Positions 3,482-16,400 of a stretch of 64,000 nucleotides of DNA are shown piece after piece. Position 1 is the stretch's first letter, and every line of letters starts with the position of its first letter. The notes below the pieces were generated by a model, which worked only from the letters and a program-made list of their open reading frames with translations, ran no database searches and had not been told where the DNA came from. This DNA is from Escherichia virus TH47: sequence record MT446416.1. One strand, given 5' to 3'. Made by a program: the position numbers and the translations under genes.

Positions 3482-4978
3482 ATGACATACAGAATGTGGA
3501 AAAAAGGTAGAACCAATGATTACAAGTTCATTGACTCTGCCATAGCAGAACAATACAACATCGGTGGTGTTGACATGTGGCTTTATGCCTATGTCGGACC
3601 AAAACAAGTCGCTGATAACACTGATTTATCATATGGCGGTGATTATTATGGTTCAGATAGTACCGTTGTGTCAAGCATTGGTGATTTAATTTTTGGTGAC
3701 ACTCCAAGTCGTAACTATAATCTCGAAGCTATCACCTTAAGTTGCGTCTACCAAGTCCAAGAAGCAACTCCTGACTTGAAAATCCCAGGATTGTTCTTCA
3801 ACTTTAACACTATGGACATCACAATTCATTATAACACAATGATTCAGCGTTTGGGAAGAAAAATTATGCCAGGTGACGTAATCGAACTCCCTAACTTACG
3901 TGATTTTGATGTACTTGGTAAAGATTCTGGTTTAAATCGCTTCTATGTAGTACAAGATGGGTTTAGAACATCAGAAGGTTACTCAGTTACATGGCAACAT
4001 CACATTTACAAACTCCGTGTTAAACCTCTTACTGATTCACCAGAGTATTCAGACCTTCTAGGTAACAATAACTACCCTGATGACCCAGATGAACCAAACA
4101 ACGGCAATGGTAATACTGATGATGGCTCTTCAGAGAACAGCAGCTATGGTAATGAAATGGACATTATGAACCGTATCATTATGCAAGCTGATGATGAAGT
4201 ACCATACATTCATTTTACTAACGAACACTTGTTCGATGACAGACCAGATACCGTTGATTTGTCTAAGTATATGCTAAATGGATACGAATTACCAGAGGAA
4301 CCAGCAAATAAAATGTATTTCCTCAAGAAAACTTACCCAGTACTGAAAGAACTATCTAATGATACATGGATTTCTGTAGAAGTCAAGCGTGGAACAATCT
4401 TTCCTCGCAAACCGATGGATGGTGACTTCTTCTTTAAAGAAAACGAGGCTGATGTCACTGGCTTCTCATTGTATCAATACGATAAATCTGCCAAAAAGTG
4501 GCTAAATTGTGATGTTGAGTATACTACAGAAAGCACACCACCACAAGGGGTTGATGATTTTTATATTGAATACAAAGAACCACACATTTATCAGTACTTA
4601 AATGGTAAATGGGGAGAACCAGAAGTAACTTACGTTAATGACCCATTCACTTCTAATAGTGTTTATGGAAATATCGATTCACAACAAGATTATCGTCCTA
4701 AGATTCCTCCAGCACGAGGTACAGTTCCTGAAGGTAATATGTTCCCAAGTGATGCAGTTGATGGTGATTACTACTATCGTACCGATTATACACCAGTAAC
4801 CCTATGGGAATACAGTGCATCCAAGAATTCTTGGGTGATTTTCGATTACGGTGGTAGAAAACCGTGGGAAGGTGCAGATCTTGCTCTAACAGAATTTGTT
4901 AATAGCCCGAACCGTGTACCATTACATGATGCAGTTAAACCTAATACAGCGTATCGTATACATAAGGATTCAGAATGA
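3482..4978 (+). CDS. hypothetical protein (possible virion structural)
   Basis: 498-aa ORF; ATG 3482 with GGAG SD; ORF-track start 3470 is TTG; stop overlaps next ATG (ATGA). Confidence 0.5.
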   Translation: MTYRMWKKGRTNDYKFIDSAIAEQYNIGGVDMWLYAYVGPKQVADNTDLSYGGDYYGSDSTVVSSIGDLIFGDTPSRNYNLEAITLSCVYQVQEATPDLKIPGLFFNFNTMDITIHYNTMIQRLGRKIMPGDVIELPNLRDFDVLGKDSGLNRFYVVQDGFRTSEGYSVTWQHHIYKLRVKPLTDSPEYSDLLGNNNYPDDPDEPNNGNGNTDDGSSENSSYGNEMDIMNRIIMQADDEVPYIHFTNEHLFDDRPDTVDLSKYMLNGYELPEEPANKMYFLKKTYPVLKELSNDTWISVEVKRGTIFPRKPMDGDFFFKENEADVTGFSLYQYDKSAKKWLNCDVEYTTESTPPQGVDDFYIEYKEPHIYQYLNGKWGEPEVTYVNDPFTSNSVYGNIDSQQDYRPKIPPARGTVPEGNMFPSDAVDGDYYYRTDYTPVTLWEYSASKNSWVIFDYGGRKPWEGADLALTEFVNSPNRVPLHDAVKPNTAYRIHKDSE

Positions 4979-6318
4979 AAATAGATTATTATTATGATGG
5001 TCAATTTCGTCGAGTACTGAAACATCTTATCAGAGTGTTTGGTGAATTTCAAGTACAAAATGGTGTTGATGCTGACGGAAAACCAAAATATAAGAAAGTT
5101 CCTTGCCGCTATGCAGATATTTCACGTATGGCAGCAGCAATTATTAATGGTAACAGTGAGAACGTGCTTCCAACAGCACCAATCATGACCATTAGTGTAA
5201 ACCAACTTAAACTAGATCGCAAGTCAGTTCGTTCAAACGCAAATGAAACATTAGTTATGGGGACTAACAAGTCCCCTGGAATTAACGAATATACTAAAGA
5301 CTTAGATAAACAGTATAAAGTAACTCGTCATAACCCAGTACCTTGGACATTTACGTTTGATGTTAATATTTGGGTTACACAAACACAAACTAAAATGGAA
5401 CTATTTGAGCAAATTTCAACATTGTTTGCTCCTAGTATTCAATTACAACTCTCCGAGAACCCACTGGATTGGACATCATTGAGTGATGTGGAGTTGATTG
5501 ACTGTCAATTTACTACTCGTGGTTTCCCACAAGGAACCGATAGTGATTTGGATATAATGGTATTGACATTTGAAACCACAATTTGGTTCTCTTTGCCAGC
5601 TATTGTTGAGAAACCAAAACTTATCCAACAAATCACCACCAATATTAAAGGTGCTCGTGATGAACTTGATTTTGAAATTGGTAATTACTCGGATATCATT
5701 ACTGATGTATTCACACCAAAGAACTTATGTATTAAAGTTGATGAAATAACAAACTCTGAACTTAATATCCCAGATACTTACCAACTCACTCTTGTTAGTC
5801 AATCACTATCAGAAACATCACCAAATGGTGGGATTTATTCATGGGAAAAATACCTTAAGTACTTGGACCCAGAATATGAAGACAAGACTGTAGGTATTAA
5901 ATTCCAACAAGCTATAGAAGAGGATAACCCACTAAAAGGACATATCTCTTCATTTGGGGAAGGGGCTGATTCTAACAAGATTGTAGTTCAGCTTGATAAT
6001 AGTAATTATACTGTTGATTATACAATACATGGATTCATTAGTAAAGACTCTTTGTTATATAACGCACTACCTGAACAATATTATGTAAATAATAGCATAC
6101 ATAACATCATTTACAAAGAGACTGAAATCCCAGCGAACTATTTGTTTAAAATTACCAATGATGGAGCAGAACTTATTGAGCCATCGCGAGTACACCACTA
6201 TGTTTATAATATGGAAGATAGTGGATATTATAGATATAATGACAAATTCAAATGGCATAAGAGTATTATGTCAGTATATCGTCAGGGATATTGGAAAATA
6301 ACTTTCACTGACAAATAA
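4975..6318 (+). CDS. hypothetical protein
   Basis: 447-aa ORF translationally coupled to upstream gene; no recognisable motif. Confidence 0.5.
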   Translation: MKIDYYYDGQFRRVLKHLIRVFGEFQVQNGVDADGKPKYKKVPCRYADISRMAAAIINGNSENVLPTAPIMTISVNQLKLDRKSVRSNANETLVMGTNKSPGINEYTKDLDKQYKVTRHNPVPWTFTFDVNIWVTQTQTKMELFEQISTLFAPSIQLQLSENPLDWTSLSDVELIDCQFTTRGFPQGTDSDLDIMVLTFETTIWFSLPAIVEKPKLIQQITTNIKGARDELDFEIGNYSDIITDVFTPKNLCIKVDEITNSELNIPDTYQLTLVSQSLSETSPNGGIYSWEKYLKYLDPEYEDKTVGIKFQQAIEEDNPLKGHISSFGEGADSNKIVVQLDNSNYTVDYTIHGFISKDSLLYNALPEQYYVNNSIHNIIYKETEIPANYLFKITNDGAELIEPSRVHHYVYNMEDSGYYRYNDKFKWHKSIMSVYRQGYWKITFTDK

Positions 6319-6800: not shown

Positions 6801-6830
6801 AAAGGAGCCAATGGCTCCTTTTTTCTTTTT
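6801..6830. terminator. bidirectional rho-independent terminator
   Basis: aaaggagcc/ggctccttt stem flanked by A-run and T-run, between convergent genes. Confidence 0.7.
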
Positions 6831-7929
6831 ATACCCCAATTAGTGGGATACCTGTTATATTAAGTAGAACAGATACTTGAAGCTTAACTGACTCACCTGC
6901 CGAAAGGTTGTTTACTATACCATCTACGCGGAACCCTAAGTTTTTATTAGAGTTAAGAGAGTTAATCACCCAGTTTTCGTAATCCGCTTTTGTAATACCA
7001 TTCGGATTTGGGAGAGTTGGGTCAACACCATTAATTACCATAGATACATCCCAATTAGGGCGACTACTTGTAATTACATCCTTGATTGATTCTAGTTGTG
7101 TAATGCGACGTGGGTCTGGAATCTGACTTGCACCAATTGAACCAGGAACAAATTTACCTTGGTTATCAACATAGAACTGACCTTTAATGAAAAATGTTTT
7201 TGAATTATACGGAAGAGAAACAATTTCACCTGATGAATCACTAACTTCACGAATCATAATTTTCAATTCATAAAAATAGTTACTACCAAATTCAAACACA
7301 CCAGTACCATTTGTGAATGTTGTCCAGTTATTTGAATCAACCTGTGAAGTACCACCCATATTGAAGTAAGCTAATGGCTTAGTACTGTTACTTTGTGTAA
7401 ATTCAATATATTTCTTACCTGTATCATAGTTGATATCAAGTAGTGTGGAGTACTCTTTATTTTCTGGACGAGATGTTTGAATTTCACGCCATTCTTTATT
7501 TTTCATTAGGACACGAAGGGAATCACCATTACTGGTAAGAACCATACGACCCATAATACTATTTTCACCATCTGGTACGGTGTTGAAAATTGAAATCATT
7601 GGGATAGATGCCCAGTCAGCTTCAGATGCAGTATCTACTGGCTGACGAGCATTATCAACTAATGCAAGAAGTAGTTCGCCAGTGTTGCCAGTATTTCTGT
7701 ACCAAATCTGACCATTAACGTTACCACGAGGTGCAGTTGCTCCACTGAAGTTCTCAACCAAGTGGAGGAAGTTTTCGTTCCATGCTTGACCGTAACCAAC
7801 TTTATTTCGACCTGCAAAGTTTAACGGTACTGGGTTACTACCAGGTTGGTTTGGTCCTAATATTACGTTATTTGGAATGGTAGCATAAACGCTACCATTA
7901 CTTCTATAAATTGTATAACTTACACTCAT
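6829..7929 (-). CDS. hypothetical protein (possible tail/baseplate component)
   Basis: 366-aa ORF, ATG with AAGGTGA SD; first of three co-oriented genes. Confidence 0.5.
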   Translation of the reverse strand: MSVSYTIYRSNGSVYATIPNNVILGPNQPGSNPVPLNFAGRNKVGYGQAWNENFLHLVENFSGATAPRGNVNGQIWYRNTGNTGELLLALVDNARQPVDTASEADWASIPMISIFNTVPDGENSIMGRMVLTSNGDSLRVLMKNKEWREIQTSRPENKEYSTLLDINYDTGKKYIEFTQSNSTKPLAYFNMGGTSQVDSNNWTTFTNGTGVFEFGSNYFYELKIMIREVSDSSGEIVSLPYNSKTFFIKGQFYVDNQGKFVPGSIGASQIPDPRRITQLESIKDVITSSRPNWDVSMVINGVDPTLPNPNGITKADYENWVINSLNSNKNLGFRVDGIVNNLSAGESVKLQVSVLLNITGIPLIGV

Positions 7930-7941
7930 ATCATCACCTTA

Positions 7942-8550
7942 TTATTGTAGTTGGACACGAACTGTGTATTTGATTTGCAAAACACGGTTAGCACTTTTCT
8001 CAACTGGGTGAAAAATAATATGGGTAAGTGGAATACCGCTATCACCATTTGTATATAAACCCAATTCGTCAAATACATATGTCCCATCCATGCTAGTACC
8101 AGAGCTAACACCTTGGTCAGATGGCTCACCTAAACCTAATGTACAAATACAGACGATATCAGTGTAAGCTTGGCCTGGAATGTGAACAGTTGTAATGTTG
8201 TTATATTGTGAATCAATACCAGCAGAGATACGTGGGTTGATTTTTTTCAGATAAGTCTGAGAATATAGACCACCGAAAGAAGTAACGCGTGGTTTCTTGT
8301 ATGTGATACGACCAGTACTCAAAACTACTGTTCCACCATTACCAAAACGCATCTCACTAATAGATCCAATAGGAATACCAGTACTATCTTGATTATAAGC
8401 CAACGCATTAGCAATAGCAGTACTCATATTTTCAGGGTGAATTGCGTTTGATTTATCCAAAACGATTTTTTGGTTAGATGGATCAGTAACGTCAGTAATT
8501 AGTACATGACCCTTAACAAATAGTTTTGGTTGTTCTGTTTCTAATTTCAT
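7942..8550 (-). CDS. hypothetical protein
   Basis: 202-aa ORF, ATG with AAGGA SD. Confidence 0.5.
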   Translation of the reverse strand: MKLETEQPKLFVKGHVLITDVTDPSNQKIVLDKSNAIHPENMSTAIANALAYNQDSTGIPIGSISEMRFGNGGTVVLSTGRITYKKPRVTSFGGLYSQTYLKKINPRISAGIDSQYNNITTVHIPGQAYTDIVCICTLGLGEPSDQGVSSGTSMDGTYVFDELGLYTNGDSGIPLTHIIFHPVEKSANRVLQIKYTVRVQLQ

Positions 8551-8559
8551 TTCTAATCC

Positions 8560-9057
8560 TTAGTAGTTAATTAAAATTTGTTCTAACTTACCAGCTAAAC
8601 TTTTTTGTACATCAGATGGATACTTGCTAATGTAATCACGGTCAATACCAACTTTCAGATAGGTAAAGTTTCCGGTTAAGGTTTCAGCGAATGTACCAGT
8701 TGTACCTTGTTCTCTAATAAGGTCACCACCATTTGGGTTAAGAATGACATTATCAGTAAATTCAAGATAGAAGTTGCAGCTTTCGGTAAATTTAATTGGG
8801 AACCAATCATCGTCCGATGGATTACTTGCCAGTGTAGCGAGTACGTAAATTCTACCAATGAAGTTACGTAGGGTAAAGGATATTGTATGTAATCCTGTAG
8901 TACTACCATAATAGCCGCCACTAGCTAATGATAATGTTTGTTCGTTCCAATGATAATCTAAGTTAGCAGGATACCAGCTATCTGATTCAGGAAATTCTTG
9001 CCATGAACCATCTTTAGTTTTTCTTTTGAAGAGGAAGTCTTTTGATCTTAATGCCAT
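8560..9057 (-). CDS. hypothetical protein
   Basis: 165-aa ORF; first gene of minus-strand operon. Confidence 0.45.
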   Translation of the reverse strand: MALRSKDFLFKRKTKDGSWQEFPESDSWYPANLDYHWNEQTLSLASGGYYGSTTGLHTISFTLRNFIGRIYVLATLASNPSDDDWFPIKFTESCNFYLEFTDNVILNPNGGDLIREQGTTGTFAETLTGNFTYLKVGIDRDYISKYPSDVQKSLAGKLEQILINY

Positions 9058-9088
9058 TGTTAAGCCCTTTTAGTAGTGAACTTTCATT

Positions 9089-9094
9089 TATTTA
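9089..9094 (-). promoter_or_regulatory. T4-late-like TAAATA motif 31 nt upstream of ATG 9057
   Basis: Recurrent motif and spacing. Confidence 0.3.
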
Positions 9095-9124
9095 TTAATG
9101 GCAACGAAATGTATTTTGTACTGA

Positions 9125-9130
9125 TAAATA
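9125..9130 (+). promoter_or_regulatory. T4-late-like TAAATA motif 36 nt upstream of ATG 9167
   Basis: Recurrent motif and spacing; divergent partner of the 9089 site. Confidence 0.3.
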
Positions 9131-9166
9131 TTGGTATATGACATTAACTCATACAAGGGAAATATT

Positions 9167-10294
9167 ATGACAATTTCATTCAACAATGGGTCAGGTGGTT
9201 CATGTAATAATTCTGGCATCAAAAGTTTAGTTATTAACGCTGCTGGACATTTAATTGTAACCTATTCCGACAATACAATCCAAGACCTAGGTCTAGTGGT
9301 TGGACAAAATGGTGCTAACGGTAGAAACTTTTATCCAAATGAGATAGGTTTTGAAGTTCCTAATGAACTCTTCCGTGTTGGTGAAGAACTAGGGTGGTGT
9401 TATCTTAGTCTTGCAAATGGCACTAGTACTTTATATTTTAAATCAAACGATGCACAAGAAGAAATTAGTACTTGGAACCGTGTAGAGTTTGGTAAAGGTG
9501 ATACTGGCGAAACTGGTAAACCATTCCACATTGACAGTTCTGGTACGGTGTTTCCAACAACTGGTCTTTTCAATAATTACACATTCTATAATACTGAAGA
9601 TGGTAAATTATATTTCTATCAAAGCGTAACTGCAACATGGAGTGATGGTATTCCTTTCCGTGGTGAACAAGGTCTACGTGGTCGTTTCCATATTGATAGT
9701 ACTGGTAGTCAATTCCCAAGTATTGATAATCTACCACAAGATTATTGCTTCTATAACACTACTGATGGTAATTTGTATTATGTTGATATCGTAACTACAT
9801 CATCAACCCCAACTAAAGAGTGGAGTGCTGGAATCTTATTCCGTGGTAAAGACGGTGAAGAAGGTAAGCAAGGTGAGCAAGGTGTTCAGGGTGAACCTGG
9901 TAAAGACACAGTTGTTATCATCAACACTATTGATCATTCATGGACTAACGCATTGTTAGTTATTGGTACATGCCCTGCTGGATACCTAGTAACTAATATC
10001 GAAGTTGACATTAATCAAGCATATGATGAACCAGTAAATGAAATGTTTGTACGTTTCGGTGGTGAAGCACAAGAAGATATTGGTGGTACTGTAATTGCAC
10101 CTGTTGATTATTTCGATATCAACCGCAAAATGCGTTACATTGTTAACGAAACCAACCACGAAGTATCAAGTAAAGATGAAATCATTTCTTGTGTATTCAA
10201 TGATTCCGTAAACAACAGTTCATTTGGTGAAATGAAGATCGTTTGTACTTTATCATGGCAAGCACCTATTCAGCCTATTCAAGATAACATTTAA
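9167..10294 (+). CDS. tail-fibre-like protein with collagen-like G-X-Y tract
   Basis: Seven consecutive G-X-Y triplets (GKDGEEGKQGEQGVQGEPGKD); duplicated ~30-aa segment FHIDSxG...FYNTxDGxLY; ATG 9167 preferred over TTG 9131. Confidence 0.55.
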   Translation: MTISFNNGSGGSCNNSGIKSLVINAAGHLIVTYSDNTIQDLGLVVGQNGANGRNFYPNEIGFEVPNELFRVGEELGWCYLSLANGTSTLYFKSNDAQEEISTWNRVEFGKGDTGETGKPFHIDSSGTVFPTTGLFNNYTFYNTEDGKLYFYQSVTATWSDGIPFRGEQGLRGRFHIDSTGSQFPSIDNLPQDYCFYNTTDGNLYYVDIVTTSSTPTKEWSAGILFRGKDGEEGKQGEQGVQGEPGKDTVVIINTIDHSWTNALLVIGTCPAGYLVTNIEVDINQAYDEPVNEMFVRFGGEAQEDIGGTVIAPVDYFDINRKMRYIVNETNHEVSSKDEIISCVFNDSVNNSSFGEMKIVCTLSWQAPIQPIQDNI

Positions 10295-10308
10295 AAGAGG
10301 GTTGATAC

Positions 10309-10344
10309 ATGGCAGTTTTTTCCAATTTAGAAGGGACCATGATG
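10309..10344 (+). repeat. conserved N-terminal module, copy 1, shared by adjacent fibre genes
   Basis: atggcagttttttccaatttagaagggaccatg versus copy at 12465; encodes MAVFSNLEGTM. Confidence 0.7.
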
Positions 10345-12450
10345 CCAACATTCAAGTTGGGTAAACGTGGTGCTTCTATTAATTTTGTAAACGATTCTGT
10401 CGCAATCAAAGACTTTTTAGGTGAAACGTTCCTACCTGTTAAGGTGGGAACTCCTAATGACGATGATTCCGCAGTAAACGTTATGTATCTTGAAGATAAC
10501 CCAAATGCTTTATTTGGCGTACTTCCACCAACAAATGACATTGGTAAAAATAACAACACTTATTTTCAAGTTGATTCTGAGGGTATTGTTGATATCTTTG
10601 CAAAAACAAATGATGTTTGGGTAAAATCATTATACATTAATAAAAATGTCCTTTCCAGTGTTAACGGTGCTGATTATATCGGACTTATTACTGGAGGAAC
10701 ACTCCAACAGGCACAGTTTTACATAACTCCAGAAGAGTTTGGTGCAAAAGGTGATGGCATCACTGATGACACGGCAGCGGTTAACGCATGTGCAGTTTAT
10801 GCAAAAGAACACCAAATCCAAATTCAAGCTGGTGGTAATTATCGTATCAGAACTGCTGTTTATTTGAATGATATTCAATGGTTTGGTGGAACAATCACTG
10901 GCAACGGTGGCACAATGGTATCAGTACTGAATAGTACAATCCAACAAGCAACATTAACAGGATGTTATTTAAAATTCTTTGGTGGTGATGGTAAATTTTA
11001 TTTTAATAAATTTATTAATATTACAAGTACTGCTACATTTCTAATGCAAGGTATGACTGAATCAGGTACTATCGACTTTTGCTTTAATGAAATGACACAA
11101 TGTAAGTACGGTGTTCTTCAGCAAGGCACTGGTGAGAAAATGACAGTTGGGCGTTATTCATACAACCACATCCATGATATATATGGTGATGCAATTGAAT
11201 TGAACGTAGTCAACTCACATTACCCAGACGGTTTTGTAATAGAAGGTAACTTGATTGAAAACGTAGATGGTACAGATGCACCAATTCCTCTTTCAAACTG
11301 GGGTATTGGTATCGGCGTTGCTGGTTCTGGTCCTTATGATGTGAATGCTGATGATTCACAATATGTAAAAAAATTCGTTATAAAAAATAACCGCTTGTAC
11401 AATGTCCGTCAATGTATTCACGTTGAGTTGGGTAAAGACTTTAAAATTCTCAATAATGAAGTTTATCCATCAACGTTGGTATCAATTGGTACTGGTTTGA
11501 CAACCGCTGGTGTAATTACTTATGGTTCTGTTGATTTTATTATTGATGGCCTATCTGGGCATCTATTAAATGATCCATCAGTAACTAACCGTATGGTTTC
11601 TATTAACTGGGGTGTAACATCTGGTAAATTTGCTGGTCCTCCACGTAACTTTAAATTATGTAATCTCCACATTCCTGAGTCGTCTATTATTGTGTATACT
11701 TCAGGCTCTGATAATTGGCTAAATACTACTGAACTTTCTAATATTACATGTAGTAGAATTCAATGGCGTGGATTGCCGTCATCTTCCAAGTTTAATAATA
11801 TCAGTACTAAAGAACTTGATGTTATTGGACAACACCTTGCAACTGAAGGTGAAGGAGGGGGCTTATATACTCGCTCTAAATATACATATACCAACTGGAC
11901 TAATTGTGTTGTTCAAGATGATTGTAACATATCAAAATATAGTTTCTCAAGAATGTATGTTGACCGTATTGACCAATCATCTAATAACTTTAAAGTAACC
12001 ACTGCAATTGATGGAACTGGACATCGTGGACCTGTAGTAATACCTGTAGTTGAACAGTATTACGTGCCTTATGATGTTTTTCCTGGTGGGAGATATTTCC
12101 CAGAAGGAACAATTATCCATAAACAATCAGGTGGAAAATTTATTGTTACAGTAGGTGGTTCTTTCTTTGGTCGATATGACACAATTAGACAAACAGTTGC
12201 AGGACAAACTTATATCGAAGCATTGGGTGTATCATGGGGTGATAATCAATATGCTAAAGCTGCTGGAACCGAAATCCTAATCACAGGAGCAGGGGAAAAC
12301 GGCGAAGATTTAAAAACATATATCACTAGAGCAGTTTATGTTGTTAATAATGCGTATCGTATCGATATTGCCGATCCGATTGTTACTGCTACCGCAGCAG
12401 GGGCATTATTGAAAGCTGCTCAACCAATAACATATATCACCCTATCTTAA
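10309..12450 (+). CDS. tailspike with pectate-lyase-like beta-helix (putative depolymerase)
   Basis: EFGAKGDGITDDTAAVNA motif typical of pectate-lyase-fold tailspikes; N-terminal 11 aa identical to next gene. Confidence 0.65.
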   Translation: MAVFSNLEGTMMPTFKLGKRGASINFVNDSVAIKDFLGETFLPVKVGTPNDDDSAVNVMYLEDNPNALFGVLPPTNDIGKNNNTYFQVDSEGIVDIFAKTNDVWVKSLYINKNVLSSVNGADYIGLITGGTLQQAQFYITPEEFGAKGDGITDDTAAVNACAVYAKEHQIQIQAGGNYRIRTAVYLNDIQWFGGTITGNGGTMVSVLNSTIQQATLTGCYLKFFGGDGKFYFNKFINITSTATFLMQGMTESGTIDFCFNEMTQCKYGVLQQGTGEKMTVGRYSYNHIHDIYGDAIELNVVNSHYPDGFVIEGNLIENVDGTDAPIPLSNWGIGIGVAGSGPYDVNADDSQYVKKFVIKNNRLYNVRQCIHVELGKDFKILNNEVYPSTLVSIGTGLTTAGVITYGSVDFIIDGLSGHLLNDPSVTNRMVSINWGVTSGKFAGPPRNFKLCNLHIPESSIIVYTSGSDNWLNTTELSNITCSRIQWRGLPSSSKFNNISTKELDVIGQHLATEGEGGGLYTRSKYTYTNWTNCVVQDDCNISKYSFSRMYVDRIDQSSNNFKVTTAIDGTGHRGPVVIPVVEQYYVPYDVFPGGRYFPEGTIIHKQSGGKFIVTVGGSFFGRYDTIRQTVAGQTYIEALGVSWGDNQYAKAAGTEILITGAGENGEDLKTYITRAVYVVNNAYRIDIADPIVTATAAGALLKAAQPITYITLS

Positions 12451-12464
12451 AGGAGATTATAAAA

Positions 12465-12500
12465 ATGGCAGTTTTTTCTAATTTAGAAGGAACCATGAAG
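12465..12500 (+). repeat. conserved N-terminal module, copy 2
   Basis: Near-identical to 10309-10344. Confidence 0.7.
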
Positions 12501-13364
12501 AAGACCTTCATACTTGGTAAAAATGGTGCACAAATTGCCACTAATGGTAATGTTGTTCAAATCCAGAACTACACGGGTACACAACTTCTTCCTGTTTCAG
12601 CAGGTGACCCAACCGCAAATACACACTTGGTTACATTGGGTTATTTGAATACACATAGCGGTGGTGGTGGCGGTTCCGGTATTTTACGTGGAACTATTGC
12701 ACCATCTGAATCAATTGGTGTAGATGGTGACGCTTACTTCTTAGTTGACAGTACTAATATTATTCAGATCTATATTAAAGACCTTGGTGTTTGGAAACCT
12801 CTCCAAAGCACAACTCCAGGTACTGATAGTTCTTACGTTACTACTGAAATCGTTCCTGTATCGGCATTTACATTAGTTCCTGGAACAACAGATCAATATA
12901 CTTATTCTTTACCTGAATCAGTACATGGTCGTGGTCCAGATATTATGGTTCAGCTACAGGGTGACCCTGGTAACATCCCACTTGACACTGTATTCCAAAC
13001 TAACGTCACTGTGAGTGGTATTGGTGACATTACGATTGATGTTATTGGTCAAATCACTGATTATACAAGTGTCAAAGTCAACATCATAGGAGCAACAACA
13101 ATGACAGTACCTTATAGTAAATTAATTAACCAAGCGGATTGGGTAGTATCTAGTGATGAATACACCATTACTATCCCAGCGTCTGAACATAACCAAACAC
13201 CTGATAATTTGTATATTTCAATTTATTCAAATAAAACTCCAGGTAGCACAGCAGCATCACCATTTGAACTGGTAATAACCGAAACTCAAATTGATGCAAG
13301 TGGTAATGTTACATTCACTTCTGACGAAGCGTTTAGTGGTAAAATAGTAATTTCTGGTAAATAA
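12465..13364 (+). CDS. tail fibre protein sharing N-terminal anchor with the tailspike
   Basis: MAVFSNLEGTM N-terminus; poly-Gly linker HSGGGGGSG; AAAGGAG SD. Confidence 0.55.
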   Translation: MAVFSNLEGTMKKTFILGKNGAQIATNGNVVQIQNYTGTQLLPVSAGDPTANTHLVTLGYLNTHSGGGGGSGILRGTIAPSESIGVDGDAYFLVDSTNIIQIYIKDLGVWKPLQSTTPGTDSSYVTTEIVPVSAFTLVPGTTDQYTYSLPESVHGRGPDIMVQLQGDPGNIPLDTVFQTNVTVSGIGDITIDVIGQITDYTSVKVNIIGATTMTVPYSKLINQADWVVSSDEYTITIPASEHNQTPDNLYISIYSNKTPGSTAASPFELVITETQIDASGNVTFTSDEAFSGKIVISGK

Positions 13365-13373
13365 AAAAAATAG

Positions 13374-13406
13374 TCCAGACTACGATTCATCGAGTCTGGA
13401 TTTTTT
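13374..13406 (+). terminator. rho-independent terminator
   Basis: tccagact/agtctgga stem followed by T6. Confidence 0.65.
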
Positions 13407-13482
13407 ATATCAATAACTAAATATATGTATATTAACAAGGTCAAATGTATTTTATGCTTTTTGCCTATTTGGAGGGAACTAA

Positions 13483-16400
13483 ATGTACTCGATTAAAACA
13501 GATCTCGATATAACTGGTGGTGCAACGGTTGGTAAAGATCTTCTTGTGAAAGGCGATGCAGTATTCAATAAAAATCTAACAGTTAATGGAACCGTAACTT
13601 TTGCTGACGCTGTATTCACTGCGATTGAAGCAGGAACTGTAGACATTTCATCTACACTAGATGTTGCTGGTAAAGCATCATTGAATGGTGGGATTGAAGT
13701 TCATGGTAATTCCGTAATTGGTAATTTACCAGTTGGCTCTGATACTGCAACGATTAATTCTAATGCACAATTCCAAAGCCCAGTATCAATGGCAGGTAAC
13801 CTAACACAAACGGCTGGCACTGCTGTACTAAAAGATACCCAAGTGGCATCAATGGATGTTCTTGGAACTTCTTCATTTAAAGGTAATATTACTGCTGAAA
13901 CTGGCACTACCGCAGCATTTGACAAAATAACTGCAACTGATGCAACATTCACAAACACTGCAACTACTGATATCACATCAACTGGAACTGCAAACTTTAA
14001 AGATGTGAATATTTCCGGTACACTAGGTGGAACATTTAGTCTATCTGATGTTAATGCAACAACTCTAACTGTTTCTGGTTTAACCAGTCTACAAGGTGGT
14101 GTTACATTAGGTTCCAACATTACTGGTGTGAATAGTAGTGCAAACTTCCGTGATATTAAAATTGGTTCCAATGCTGCAAACACTAACTACCGTTTGAGCT
14201 TTAACTATTCTGCTCCAAGTCTTCGTCCAACTGTAATTCTACAGAACGAAATCCAATCAGAATTGATGTCTCCAGCTACCCTAAGTGTATTGAAAACTGC
14301 ATCTTTTGGTGATTCGTCATTATCCACTTTTGGTATTACTGGTAATGGTCTAAACAAACTAGATTACCTAACAGTATCTGGTAACTCTGTTCAAGATCCA
14401 ACAACTCCACTATTACAAGTAACTTCAGGTAAAACTAAAGTTCATGATTTCGAAGTAACAGGAACTGCAACTATTCCTAACATTGAAAGTACTGGAACTG
14501 CTAATTTTAATAACATCAACGTATCTGGTACACTCGGCGGTACTTTCAGTCTTGATGATATTGAAGCAAACACTCTAACTGTTTCTGGATTAACTAGCCT
14601 TGTTGGTGGTGTAACTTTGGGTGCTGATATTTCCGGTGCTAATAGTACTGCTAATTTTAAAGCAGTAAGTTTAGGACAAAACGCAGCCGATGCTAACGTT
14701 AAGTATGGTTTTGCTTATTCTGCCCCTGGTGCACGTCCAACTGTAATTCTACAAAATGAAATTCAGTCTGAACTAGTATCTCCAGCAGTACTAAATGTAC
14801 AAAAAACTGCTACCTTCGGTGATGCATCTCTTGCAACCTATGGTATCACAGGTAACGGTCTAAACAAACTAGATTATCTATCTATTACTGGTAATGGTAC
14901 ACAAAGTCCAGCAACGCCACAACTACAAGTAGCTGGTAAATCAGTACTAAATGATGTTGAATTCACTGGTACTGTAACTGGCCTAACAGTTGATGTAAGT
15001 GGTCAAGACCTAACTCCTAAATCTGTTGTTGCTGCTGAAGCAATCAAAGGACAAACCCTTGAATCTGTTGGTCAAACCACCGTAGGAACTAACCTACAAG
15101 TTGGTGGAACAGCTAATGTTGTTGGTGCACTAACTGGTACTGCTGCAACCTTTACTGGTGACGTAAGTGCTGCTAAAGGTACTTTCAGTGGTGATGTTAG
15201 CGTTACTGGGCAAACTGTAACTGTACGTGATTTAGTAGTAACTGGCACAACTACTGGTGTAACTGCCCAAGCTGACGTTGATGGTCTTGATATCGCCCCA
15301 AATAAAGTTGATGTTACAACAACACTATCTGTTGCTGGGGACACTACTTTAGCTGGTCTAACTGCTAGTTCAGTAACAAGTACTGGTGATGTTACTGGTG
15401 CGTCTGTATCTGGTAATACAGTAACTGCGGCTGGTGCACTATCTGGTGGTTCTCTTGCAGTAACTGGTGCTGGTTCTATGGCTTCACTAACTGTTCCAAG
15501 TATTACTGGGGACACTACTTTTGCTAATAACGTAACTATTACTGGAACACTAACTCCGAGTAGTATAGATTTAAGCACTACTGATGTAAGTGCTGCTTCT
15601 TTAACAACTACTGGTAACGTAACTGTTGGTGGTTCTCTTGCAGTAACTGGTGCTATTGATTTGTCTGCTGCTGATGTAGTAACAAAATCAGTTAGTGCAA
15701 CTAACCCAAGTACATTTGGTGTAATTAATGCATCTTCTGTTGCCGCAACTGGTGACGTTTCAGGTGGCACTCTAACTACTACTGGTGCAGCGAAAGTAGG
15801 AACACTAACTAGTACTGGTGTAGTATCTGGTTCGCGTTTGTCTTCTGGTACTGCAACAATCTCAACTTCTGTAACAGTTCCAACTTTACAAGCTGAAGCT
15901 GCTGGTGCTGGTACACTAAATCTAGCAAGTAATGTTGTCGCGGCAAAAGATCTAACTGTCACTGGTGTATTCAAACCTGAAGGTGGTCTTGACCTAACAA
16001 CTGTTGATATTACTGCAAACTCACTAACTACTACTGCTGATGTTAATGTTGGTGGAAACTTAGTAGTTGATGGTACTTTTGACCTAAGTGCTGCTGATGT
16101 ATCAGTTAAATCTCTTGTAAGTGCAGAGGCAATTACTAGTGGTGGTGTGATTACCGTTACCGATTCAACCAATACTAGTTCGTTCCCTAAAATTACTTCA
16201 ACTGATGCAACACTCTTTACAGTAAATGCAGGTACTATTAATGCAACTGGCAACAGTGTACTACAAAGTGTATCAGCTACTCAAGTAACTGCTACTAGTG
16301 CTGAATTTTCTGGTAGTGGCCTTGGTCTTCAAGTTGATAATGATGCAAACGTTGGTGGTGCATTATCTGTTGGTGGCATTGCAACTGTTGGTTCTTTAAC

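Follow-up and report, generated by a model that had tools for sequence, protein, structure and literature searches.

The genome of Escherichia virus TH47 (MT446416.1) contains two adjacent genes whose products start with the same 11 residues, MAVFSNLEGTM. We analyzed these genes within a 64,000-nucleotide stretch of the genome (hereafter, the window). Both are on the plus strand, at 10309-12450 (713 amino acids) and 12465-13364 (299 amino acids; the coordinates include the stop codons), and they correspond to gp573 and gp572 of phage 121Q. The explanation that we favor, and that as a whole we consider fairly probable, is that the first gene encodes a mosaic tailspike of an Asteriusvirus, in which a colanidase (an enzyme that degrades colanic acid) is mounted on the virion via an N-terminal module of the gp572 type (the N-module), and that the first 11 residues of this module are under constraint. 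The original prediction for this region, which was made from the sequence alone, gave the coordinates and the common start exactly for both open reading frames (ORFs), and 33 of the 36 nucleotides that encode the start are indeed identical (3 differences).

A tailspike with two unrelated parts

The similarity between the two proteins is not limited to the 11 residues. By BLASTP, residues 1-104 of the tailspike align to residues 1-110 of the gp572 ortholog with 45 of 110 identities (41%, E = 2e-19), so the homology runs for about 105-110 residues. The window does not contain a third copy of the N-module (phmmer search of all six frames).

The rest of the tailspike is related to the colanidase gp150 of phage phi92. 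Residues 96-712 match the structure of phi92 gp150 (PDB 6E0V; E = 3.8e-233), and residues 94-711 match phrog_6117 (E = 1.6e-251). The tailspike is also 57% identical, across 617 residues, to the phi92-like colanidase of phage muut (804 amino acids). Convincing similarity to the muut protein begins at SLYINKNVLSS, which is around residue 107 of the tailspike and residue 200 of the muut protein, and nothing in the tailspike corresponds to residues 1 to ~190 of the muut protein. Because residues 1 to ~105 are homologous to gp572 and the body is homologous to phi92 gp150, the two homologies meet near residue 106. From these alignments, the tailspike is a two-piece mosaic, with a sharp junction near residue 106 between a diverged paralog of the gp572-type N-module and a phi92-type body. 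Relative to phi92 gp150 (PDB 6E0V and 6E0W) and its Justusliebigvirus homologs (PHROG 6117), the tailspike is homologous from residue ~107 to the C-terminus, but it begins with a ~105-residue RaK2-like N-module instead of an unrelated N-terminus of ~190 residues, and it is carried by an unrelated jumbo myovirus.

The closest relatives of the body are in those unrelated phi92-like myoviruses (Justusliebigvirus). More broadly, we found colanidase bodies in 254 phage records of diverse types, including Vequintavirinae-like myoviruses and phages of ~41 kb, with 27-57% identity outside of the jumbo group. According to precomputed Pfam matches, the body belongs to PF27800 ("WcaM"). This family is named after a protein from the host's colanic-acid gene cluster, and so the family appears to include both an enzyme from phages and a protein of a host pathway. 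As reported in PMC13450770, which cites Xu et al. 2025, phi92 gp150 was shown to cleave colanic acid. From the 57% identity, we infer that the tailspike of the window degrades colanic acid as well.

The tailspike gene was probably inserted next to a conserved gene

A 5-kb region of the window has 98.8% nucleotide identity to Escherichia phage fEgEco12, 97.8-98.7% identity to eight other jumbo coliphages, and ~79% identity to 121Q, phAPEC6, PBECO4, and related phages. Judging from these similarities, the source of the window is a 121Q-like Asteriusvirus, within the RaK2-like jumbo myoviruses (coliphages). In 121Q, the order of the genes is gp574 ("tail protein"), gp573 ("colanic acid degradation"), gp572 ("virion structural protein"), and gp571 ("tail fiber protein"). 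The two genes of the window are direct orthologs of gp573 and gp572 from 121Q and other Asteriusvirus, in the same order and with no substantive difference, and many deposited genomes already contain the gene pair itself, with annotations.

The 299-residue protein matches phrog_10468 across residues 1-299 (E = 1.9e-92), and in the genomes that we examined, its gene is consistently flanked by those of the gp574-type tail protein and the gp571-type long fiber. It is the conserved, lineage-wide ortholog of gp572 and the ancestral carrier of the N-module. The original prediction called it a fiber, but it is not predicted to be one: two beta-sandwich (Ig-like) domains are predicted after the shared module, and a fold search with the model of the full protein returned generic Ig-like matches only.

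A tblastn search with the first 114 residues of the gp572 ortholog found 71 phage records, all from RaK2-like jumbo phages, whose hosts are Escherichia, Klebsiella, Salmonella, Erwinia, Yersinia, Serratia, Cronobacter, Xanthomonas, and Pectobacterium. The N-module is found at 106 places in the 71 records, so 35 records have two copies; among the matches listed, these are Escherichia phages and Salmonella SD phages. In 35 of the 71 related genomes, mostly those of E. coli phages, the tailspike gene is located between gp574 and gp572. There is no tailspike between these genes in RaK2, GAP32, CBB, fHe-Yen9-04, Munch, EJP2 (which is an E. coli phage), XaC1 (where this place holds one small minus-strand ORF), Kaldavass, or fENko-Kae01. 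Since the tailspike is missing from this locus in nine other lineages, it is a branch-specific insertion: as far as we can tell from these genomes, the E. coli/Salmonella branch acquired the gene at a site between gp574 and gp572. The isolate genomes have just two layouts, with the tailspike present or absent.

In RaK2 and K64-1, the gp572 ortholog is only 115 amino acids long and comprises the N-module alone (RaK2 ORF061w, at 9001-9348 of the compared locus). The long fiber (gp571) and gp570 are absent from RaK2, where ORF060w, which comes next, is the ortholog of gp569 (identity of 49% across the N-terminal 372 residues, E = 4e-112). That RaK2 keeps the N-module alone suggests that the module itself has a structural role. 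Neither the Alcyoneusvirus adsorption paper nor the RaK2 genome paper discusses ORF061w.

The N-module is joined to many kinds of bodies

Our initial homolog search with a profile of the N-module found 8 short proteins only, and we replaced it with an exhaustive search of 1.84 billion representatives with a hidden Markov model (HMM) profile (E ≤ 0.001). The exhaustive search gave 281 matches, which divide the module into two parts. Positions 1-65 were matched solely at residue 1 of their targets, and these targets have very different bodies. Positions 66-112 are a widespread motif of fiber and collagen-like proteins, often with many copies per protein.

The proteins that are headed by the N-module include a 780-residue pectate-lyase-like spike with an endosialidase-type S74 chaperone (P0026); a 705-residue right-handed beta-helix (P0029); six proteins of 1200-1366 residues with BNR/Sortilin-Vps10-type (propeller-type) repeat domains, one of which also has a carbohydrate-binding module (P0034, P0054, P0064, P0074, P0114, and P0138); and several proteins of 185-300 residues. 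Furthermore, ORFs of 113-115 residues contain the N-module only. These are RaK2 ORF061w (P0001) and, in a second lineage, a different metagenomic protein of 113 residues (P0014). We also considered whether gp572, gp569, and the metagenomic fiber P0034 have a common C-terminal tip domain, but the BLASTP similarity was not significant (E of 0.1-0.2). Among cultured phages, the N-module is restricted to the RaK2-like group, plus one marginal match in Salicola phage SCTP-2.

The genes for P0026 and P0029 are 6 kb apart on one 120-kb metagenomic phage contig (at 8001-10343 and 16571-18343 of the compared locus), and both proteins begin with MAIFS[NS]L[SN]GTM. This contig is an independent case of two spikes with the same N-terminus in one genome. 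Between the two spikes are three large proteins whose N-termini resemble the virion protein JP4_235. P0026 and P0029 have precomputed matches to PF27114 ("Phage_tail_beta"), and the proteins of the window do not; we did not equate this family with the N-module, and we found no mention of it in the literature.

Thus, homologous N-termini are joined to unrelated distal domains both within and between genomes. The original prediction had proposed a common anchor with interchangeable distal modules, and the ~105-residue homology, the unrelated bodies, the recombinant tailspike, and the metagenomic relatives all point to such an arrangement.

A probable role in attachment and trimerization

The N-module is probably an attachment and trimerization module. 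We propose an attachment role because the module is always at the extreme N-terminus, because conservation is highest in its first residues, for which disorder is predicted in isolation, because it is found with interchangeable bodies, and because it survives as a stand-alone protein. In the AlphaFold2 (AF2) model, residues 1-6 have a predicted local distance difference test (pLDDT) score of under 50, which is consistent with a segment that becomes ordered only upon binding. For the model of residues ~58-106, the best fold match is the trimerization domain of collagen XV/XVIII. This match is weak (a low score and 11% sequence identity), and the models point to a resemblance, not to membership in that family. 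A fold search of BFVD with the N-module found the ortholog from a Yersinia phage along with collagen-like and tail-fiber proteins. Residues ~58-106 may also be comparable to the foldon of T4 and to foldon-type units of other phage fibers.

In the mechanism that we propose, the N-terminal peptide and the beta segment (residues 1-57) would dock the trimer to a partner on the tail or the baseplate, and the small beta unit (residues 58-106) would nucleate trimerization. The E. coli branch would have gained the colanidase by horizontal transfer and used this module to place it on the virion, next to gp572. Enterobacteria in general make a slime layer of colanic acid, and the mounted spike would strip this layer and let the other fibers reach the cell. 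For this reason, the tailspike is more likely to be an accessory that strips a barrier than a host-range switch. The original prediction was that this locus favors host-range switching by recombination, and we did not find any recombinant between the two genes in related isolate genomes.

Proteomics data from related phages place gp572 orthologs in the virion. CBB_227 was identified in CBB virions by mass spectrometry (5 peptides, 32% coverage), and ENKO_256c was identified in fENko-Kae01 virions by liquid chromatography with tandem mass spectrometry (LC-MS/MS). We would expect the tailspike to be attached to the virion as well. A candidate partner is the gp574-type protein, which is encoded directly upstream of the N-module gene or genes in the RaK2-like isolate genomes that we examined. 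This is an abundant virion protein that was detected by mass spectrometry in phAPEC6 (gp253, 65.6% coverage) and in CBB (CBB_228). The tail appendages of this group of phages include baseplate fibers, three rings of sheath "hairs", and 12 elongated decorations, and their genes are unassigned (PMC7247149, PMC5259590).

A broader proposal, which we make only tentatively, is that the MAVFSNLEGTM module is an undescribed docking module that is specific to RaK2-like phages, that the place on the tail where it docks always has to be filled, and that it acts as a general socket for acquired distal modules, such as colanidase, other beta-helices, or fibers with BNR-repeat domains. In line with a place that has to be filled, RaK2 and K64-1 keep the 115-residue stand-alone protein after losing the distal domains and the long fiber. 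If this proposal is correct, then the module is a defined handle for retargeting jumbo phages by grafting modules.

Several observations weigh against a virion-mounted tailspike with a docking module. First, the tailspike is not listed in the structural proteome of phAPEC6. That proteome is incomplete, and the gene is missing from the GenBank record, which may be the cause of its absence. (In phAPEC6 both ORFs are intact, with 713 and 298 amino acids, at 7311-9452 and 9469-10365 of the compared locus; in GenBank MK817115, both are unannotated and the numbering skips from gp253 to gp256.) Neither N-module protein is in the shallow data set of 49 proteins for JP4, which does contain homologs of gp571, gp569, gp575, and gp577. 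Second, the tailspike gene is interrupted or truncated in some relatives: it is split into two coding sequences (CDS) in vB_Ec-M-J (13310-15452 of the compared locus), it encodes a frameshifted product of 141 amino acids in JNE01, and in an E. coli assembly an internal deletion leaves 201 amino acids (the N-terminal ~150 and the last ~50). These might be sequencing errors or the genuine decay of an accessory gene, and the gene may be dispensable. Third, the AF2 models are of monomers only. Fourth, neither a Pfam scan nor the precomputed Pfam matches placed a family on the N-module, and by sequence or fold it has no similarity to the known anchor or branching domains that we compared it to (the T4 gp10-like XD domain, the N-terminal domains of the CBA120 tailspikes, and the head-binding domain of P22). 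Finally, with an identity of only 41%, the N-modules of the two proteins may recognize separate sites.

This last point leads to an alternative in which the tail appendages are branched. The two proteins would be at different sites, with one of them docking onto the other or onto gp574, and their N-modules would have diverged towards different partners. The tailspike's copy of the module does lack the Gly-rich insert of the gp572 ortholog and has conserved features of its own; gp574, besides being abundant in virions, is always the upstream neighbor in the RaK2-like isolates that we examined; and branched systems have been documented in the related phage RaK2 (PMC10253068). However, we did not detect a T4 gp10-like or CBA120-like branching domain in either protein, and the two N-module spikes on the 120-kb metagenomic contig are not adjacent to a homolog of gp574. 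Overall, we consider a branched arrangement to be unlikely.

It is more doubtful still that the N-module is just a folding module. On this account, it is a nucleus for trimerization or folding, and the colanidase is a soluble protein that is released at lysis and is not a component of the virion. This would fit with the resemblance of the second half of the module to a collagen-type trimerization unit, with the many repeats of the 66-112 motif inside unrelated fiber proteins, and with the lack of reports of the tailspike in two Asteriusvirus virion proteomes. On the other hand, residues 1-65 occur nowhere but at the extreme N-terminus of their proteins and the first 11 are the most conserved, which is typical of attachment ends and not of internal trimerization units. 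Also, proteins of 113-115 residues that have only the N-module persist as ORFs, the gp572 orthologs are virion proteins, and the tailspike gene lies within a block of tail-structure genes with intergenic gaps of 14 nucleotides.

The first 11 residues are conserved across the family

In the mechanism that we propose, purifying selection acting where the N-module docks, and not a recent exchange of DNA, would keep its first 11 residues identical. In an alignment of six sequences (both copies from the window, both copies from 121Q, RaK2, and GAP32), M1, A2, F4, S5, N6, E8, G9, T10, and M11 are invariant. The pattern MA[VI]FSN[LF][ED]GTM is present at 13 loci from at least 7 genera, and the 11-residue peptide is kept, with largely the same codons, in the orthologs from phages of Klebsiella, Cronobacter, Pectobacterium, Yersinia, Erwinia, and Xanthomonas. 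By these comparisons, no other part of the family is under as strong a constraint as this peptide.

The original prediction connected the near-identical 36 bp with host-range switching by recombination; our comparisons do not support this, and they do not point to ongoing exchange between the two genes. Within the window, these sequences do stand out: a search for the 36-nucleotide pattern with up to 3 mismatches matched solely at 10309 and 12465, and there were 0 matches in 100 dinucleotide-preserving shuffles of the window. Furthermore, they lie within a direct repeat of 83 nucleotides (76% identity) that takes in the upstream stop codon, the Shine-Dalgarno region, and 65 bases at the start of the coding sequence. 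However, the longest exact run of DNA that is common to both copies is 14 bp, which is a poor substrate for recombination.

We also considered gene conversion between the paralogs and rejected it, because the codon identity of the leader is not clearly above that of the remaining module. Among identical residues, and excluding Met and Trp, the codons of the window's paralogs agree at 7 of 9 positions within the first 11 codons, versus 19 of 33 in the remaining module. In 121Q, gp573 begins with MAVFSNFEGTM and gp572 begins with MAVFSNLEGTM, so the two copies differ at one residue (L7F), as well as at 3 of the first 33 nucleotides.

A neighbor-joining tree of the N-modules (midpoint-rooted, without bootstrap) placed the four tailspike N-modules in a separate clade that is outside of all of the gp572 orthologs. 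The tailspike N-modules are 27-43% identical to the gp572-type N-modules that we compared them to, and the gp572 orthologs from isolates are 49-86% identical to each other in this module. The separate clade and the low identity imply that the tailspike N-module is an old or imported paralog and not a fresh copy of its neighbor. Taken together, these comparisons point to family-wide constraint, instead of recent gene conversion, as the reason why the 11 residues are identical.

We view it as very unlikely that the 5' ends are alike through recent gene conversion, or as a patch of homology for swapping distal modules that leads to frequent host-range switching: the 33 of 36 identical nucleotides, the inclusion of the stop codon and the ribosome-binding site in the 83-nucleotide repeat, the origin of the tailspike itself by a past recombination, and leader codons of gp572 that are identical at 9 of 9 positions in several genera (versus about 0.5 elsewhere) and could mark a conserved boundary sequence would all fit, but the paralogs' leader codons, the differences between the 121Q copies, the separate clade of tailspike N-modules, the short exact run, and the lack of chimeras of the two genes in related isolates argue otherwise.

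The 9 of 9 identical codons come from comparing the leader of the window's gp572 ortholog (12465-12497) to the orthologs from GAP32, CBB, Yen9-04, XaC1, and Kaldavass, which are phages of Cronobacter, Pectobacterium, Yersinia, Xanthomonas, and Erwinia, at informative codons; elsewhere in those genes, the background rate of identical codons is about 0.4-0.55. Besides a boundary sequence, a constraint on translation initiation and an RNA feature are candidates for explaining this.

Comparison to known systems

Similar arrangements are known from other phages. TSP1-4 of phage CBA120 and gp526-gp534 of RaK2 have N-terminal assembly domains and varied, horizontally exchanged distal modules, with several of these proteins per virion (PMC10253068). 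Their N-terminal domains are T4 gp10-like (XD) or CBA120 D1-like; in contrast, the N-module of the window has no such match, and its gene pair is at a different locus than the RaK2 gp526-534 cluster. In Klebsiella podophages KP32, K11, and KP34, a short conserved N-terminal peptide docks a variable depolymerase to its partner, as described in PMC13352976. That peptide has no sequence relationship to ours, which continues into ~95 further homologous residues. Large-scale structural surveys have also found that anchor domains are reused across classes of receptor-binding proteins (bioRxiv 10.64898/2026.05.12.724579).

Modular receptor-binding proteins with common anchors are thus an established principle, and our results do not change the understanding of how phages recognize their hosts. 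We found no published paper that notes the shared N-module of gp573 and gp572. The module is not detectably related to the anchors of CBA120, RaK2 gp526-534, or the Klebsiella podophages, and we found no description of it. We set boundaries for this uncharacterized module (residues 1-105, with the junction near residue 106), which is apparently a mounting point for accessory spikes in RaK2-like phages. The tailspike also documents that a jumbo phage acquired a colanidase horizontally, from a pool that is common to phi92-like and other phages. Finally, the results offer a concrete rule for designing Asteriusvirus that carry grafted depolymerase bodies.

Features of the locus and neighboring genes

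Table 1. Positions in the window of the two genes' parts, the 5' repeats, and the flanking genes (aa, amino acids; nt, nucleotides)
Feature	Coordinates	Strand	Details
gp574-type "tail protein", upstream neighbor	9167..10294	+	375 aa from ATG; phrog_13565 E = 2.8e-213, ORF aa 13-387
36-nt 5' repeat, copy 1, encoding MAVFSNLEGTMM	10309..10344	+	within 83-nt direct repeat 10291-10373
Tailspike N-module, aa 1-105	10309..10623	+	near-invariant N-terminal peptide, beta-rich segment aa ~1-57, small beta unit aa ~58-106
Colanidase body, aa 107-713 + stop codon	10627..12450	+	phi92 gp150 / PHROG 6117 / PF27800 (WcaM) type
36-nt 5' repeat, copy 2, encoding MAVFSNLEGTMK	12465..12500	+	within 83-nt direct repeat 12447-12529
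gp572-ortholog N-module, aa 1-111	12465..12797	+	Gly-rich insert aa 65-71; lineage-wide, single-copy version; 50-86% identity to orthologs from other RaK2-like phages
gp572-ortholog distal part, aa 123-299 + stop codon	12831..13364	+	two predicted beta-sandwich (Ig-like) domains; no enzyme signature
gp571-type repetitive long fiber, downstream neighbor, 1652 aa	13483..18441	+	phrog_4549 "tail fiber protein" E = 1.9e-200; synteny

The genes of the window agree with the map of 121Q. A ClpA-like protease, a virion protein, a T4 gp15-like sheath completion protein (4975-6318), and MutT come first, and these are followed by three minus-strand structural genes (gp575-577, at 8560-9057, 7942-8550, and 6829-7929), gp574, the tailspike, gp572, the long fiber, gp570, gp569, and thymidylate synthase. 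A scan of 8900-13600 for promoters and terminators found nothing that exceeded the shuffled background.

The gp574-type protein contains collagen-like G-X-Y stretches, with a weak match to the Pfam Collagen family at residues 239-257. On visual inspection, the protein also contains FHIDS..G....Y.FYNT.DG.LY....W twice, and this motif looks similar to positions 66-112 of the shared module.

The gp571-type long fiber is repetitive and is rich in Thr, Gly, Ser, and Val, and its length differs strongly among close relatives: 1652 amino acids in the window, 1638 in metagenomic copies, 1841 in 121Q and phAPEC6, and 2129 in JP4. This variation suggests that repeat units expand and contract. In vB_Ec-M-J, the long-fiber region holds several separate CDS for "tail fiber protein".

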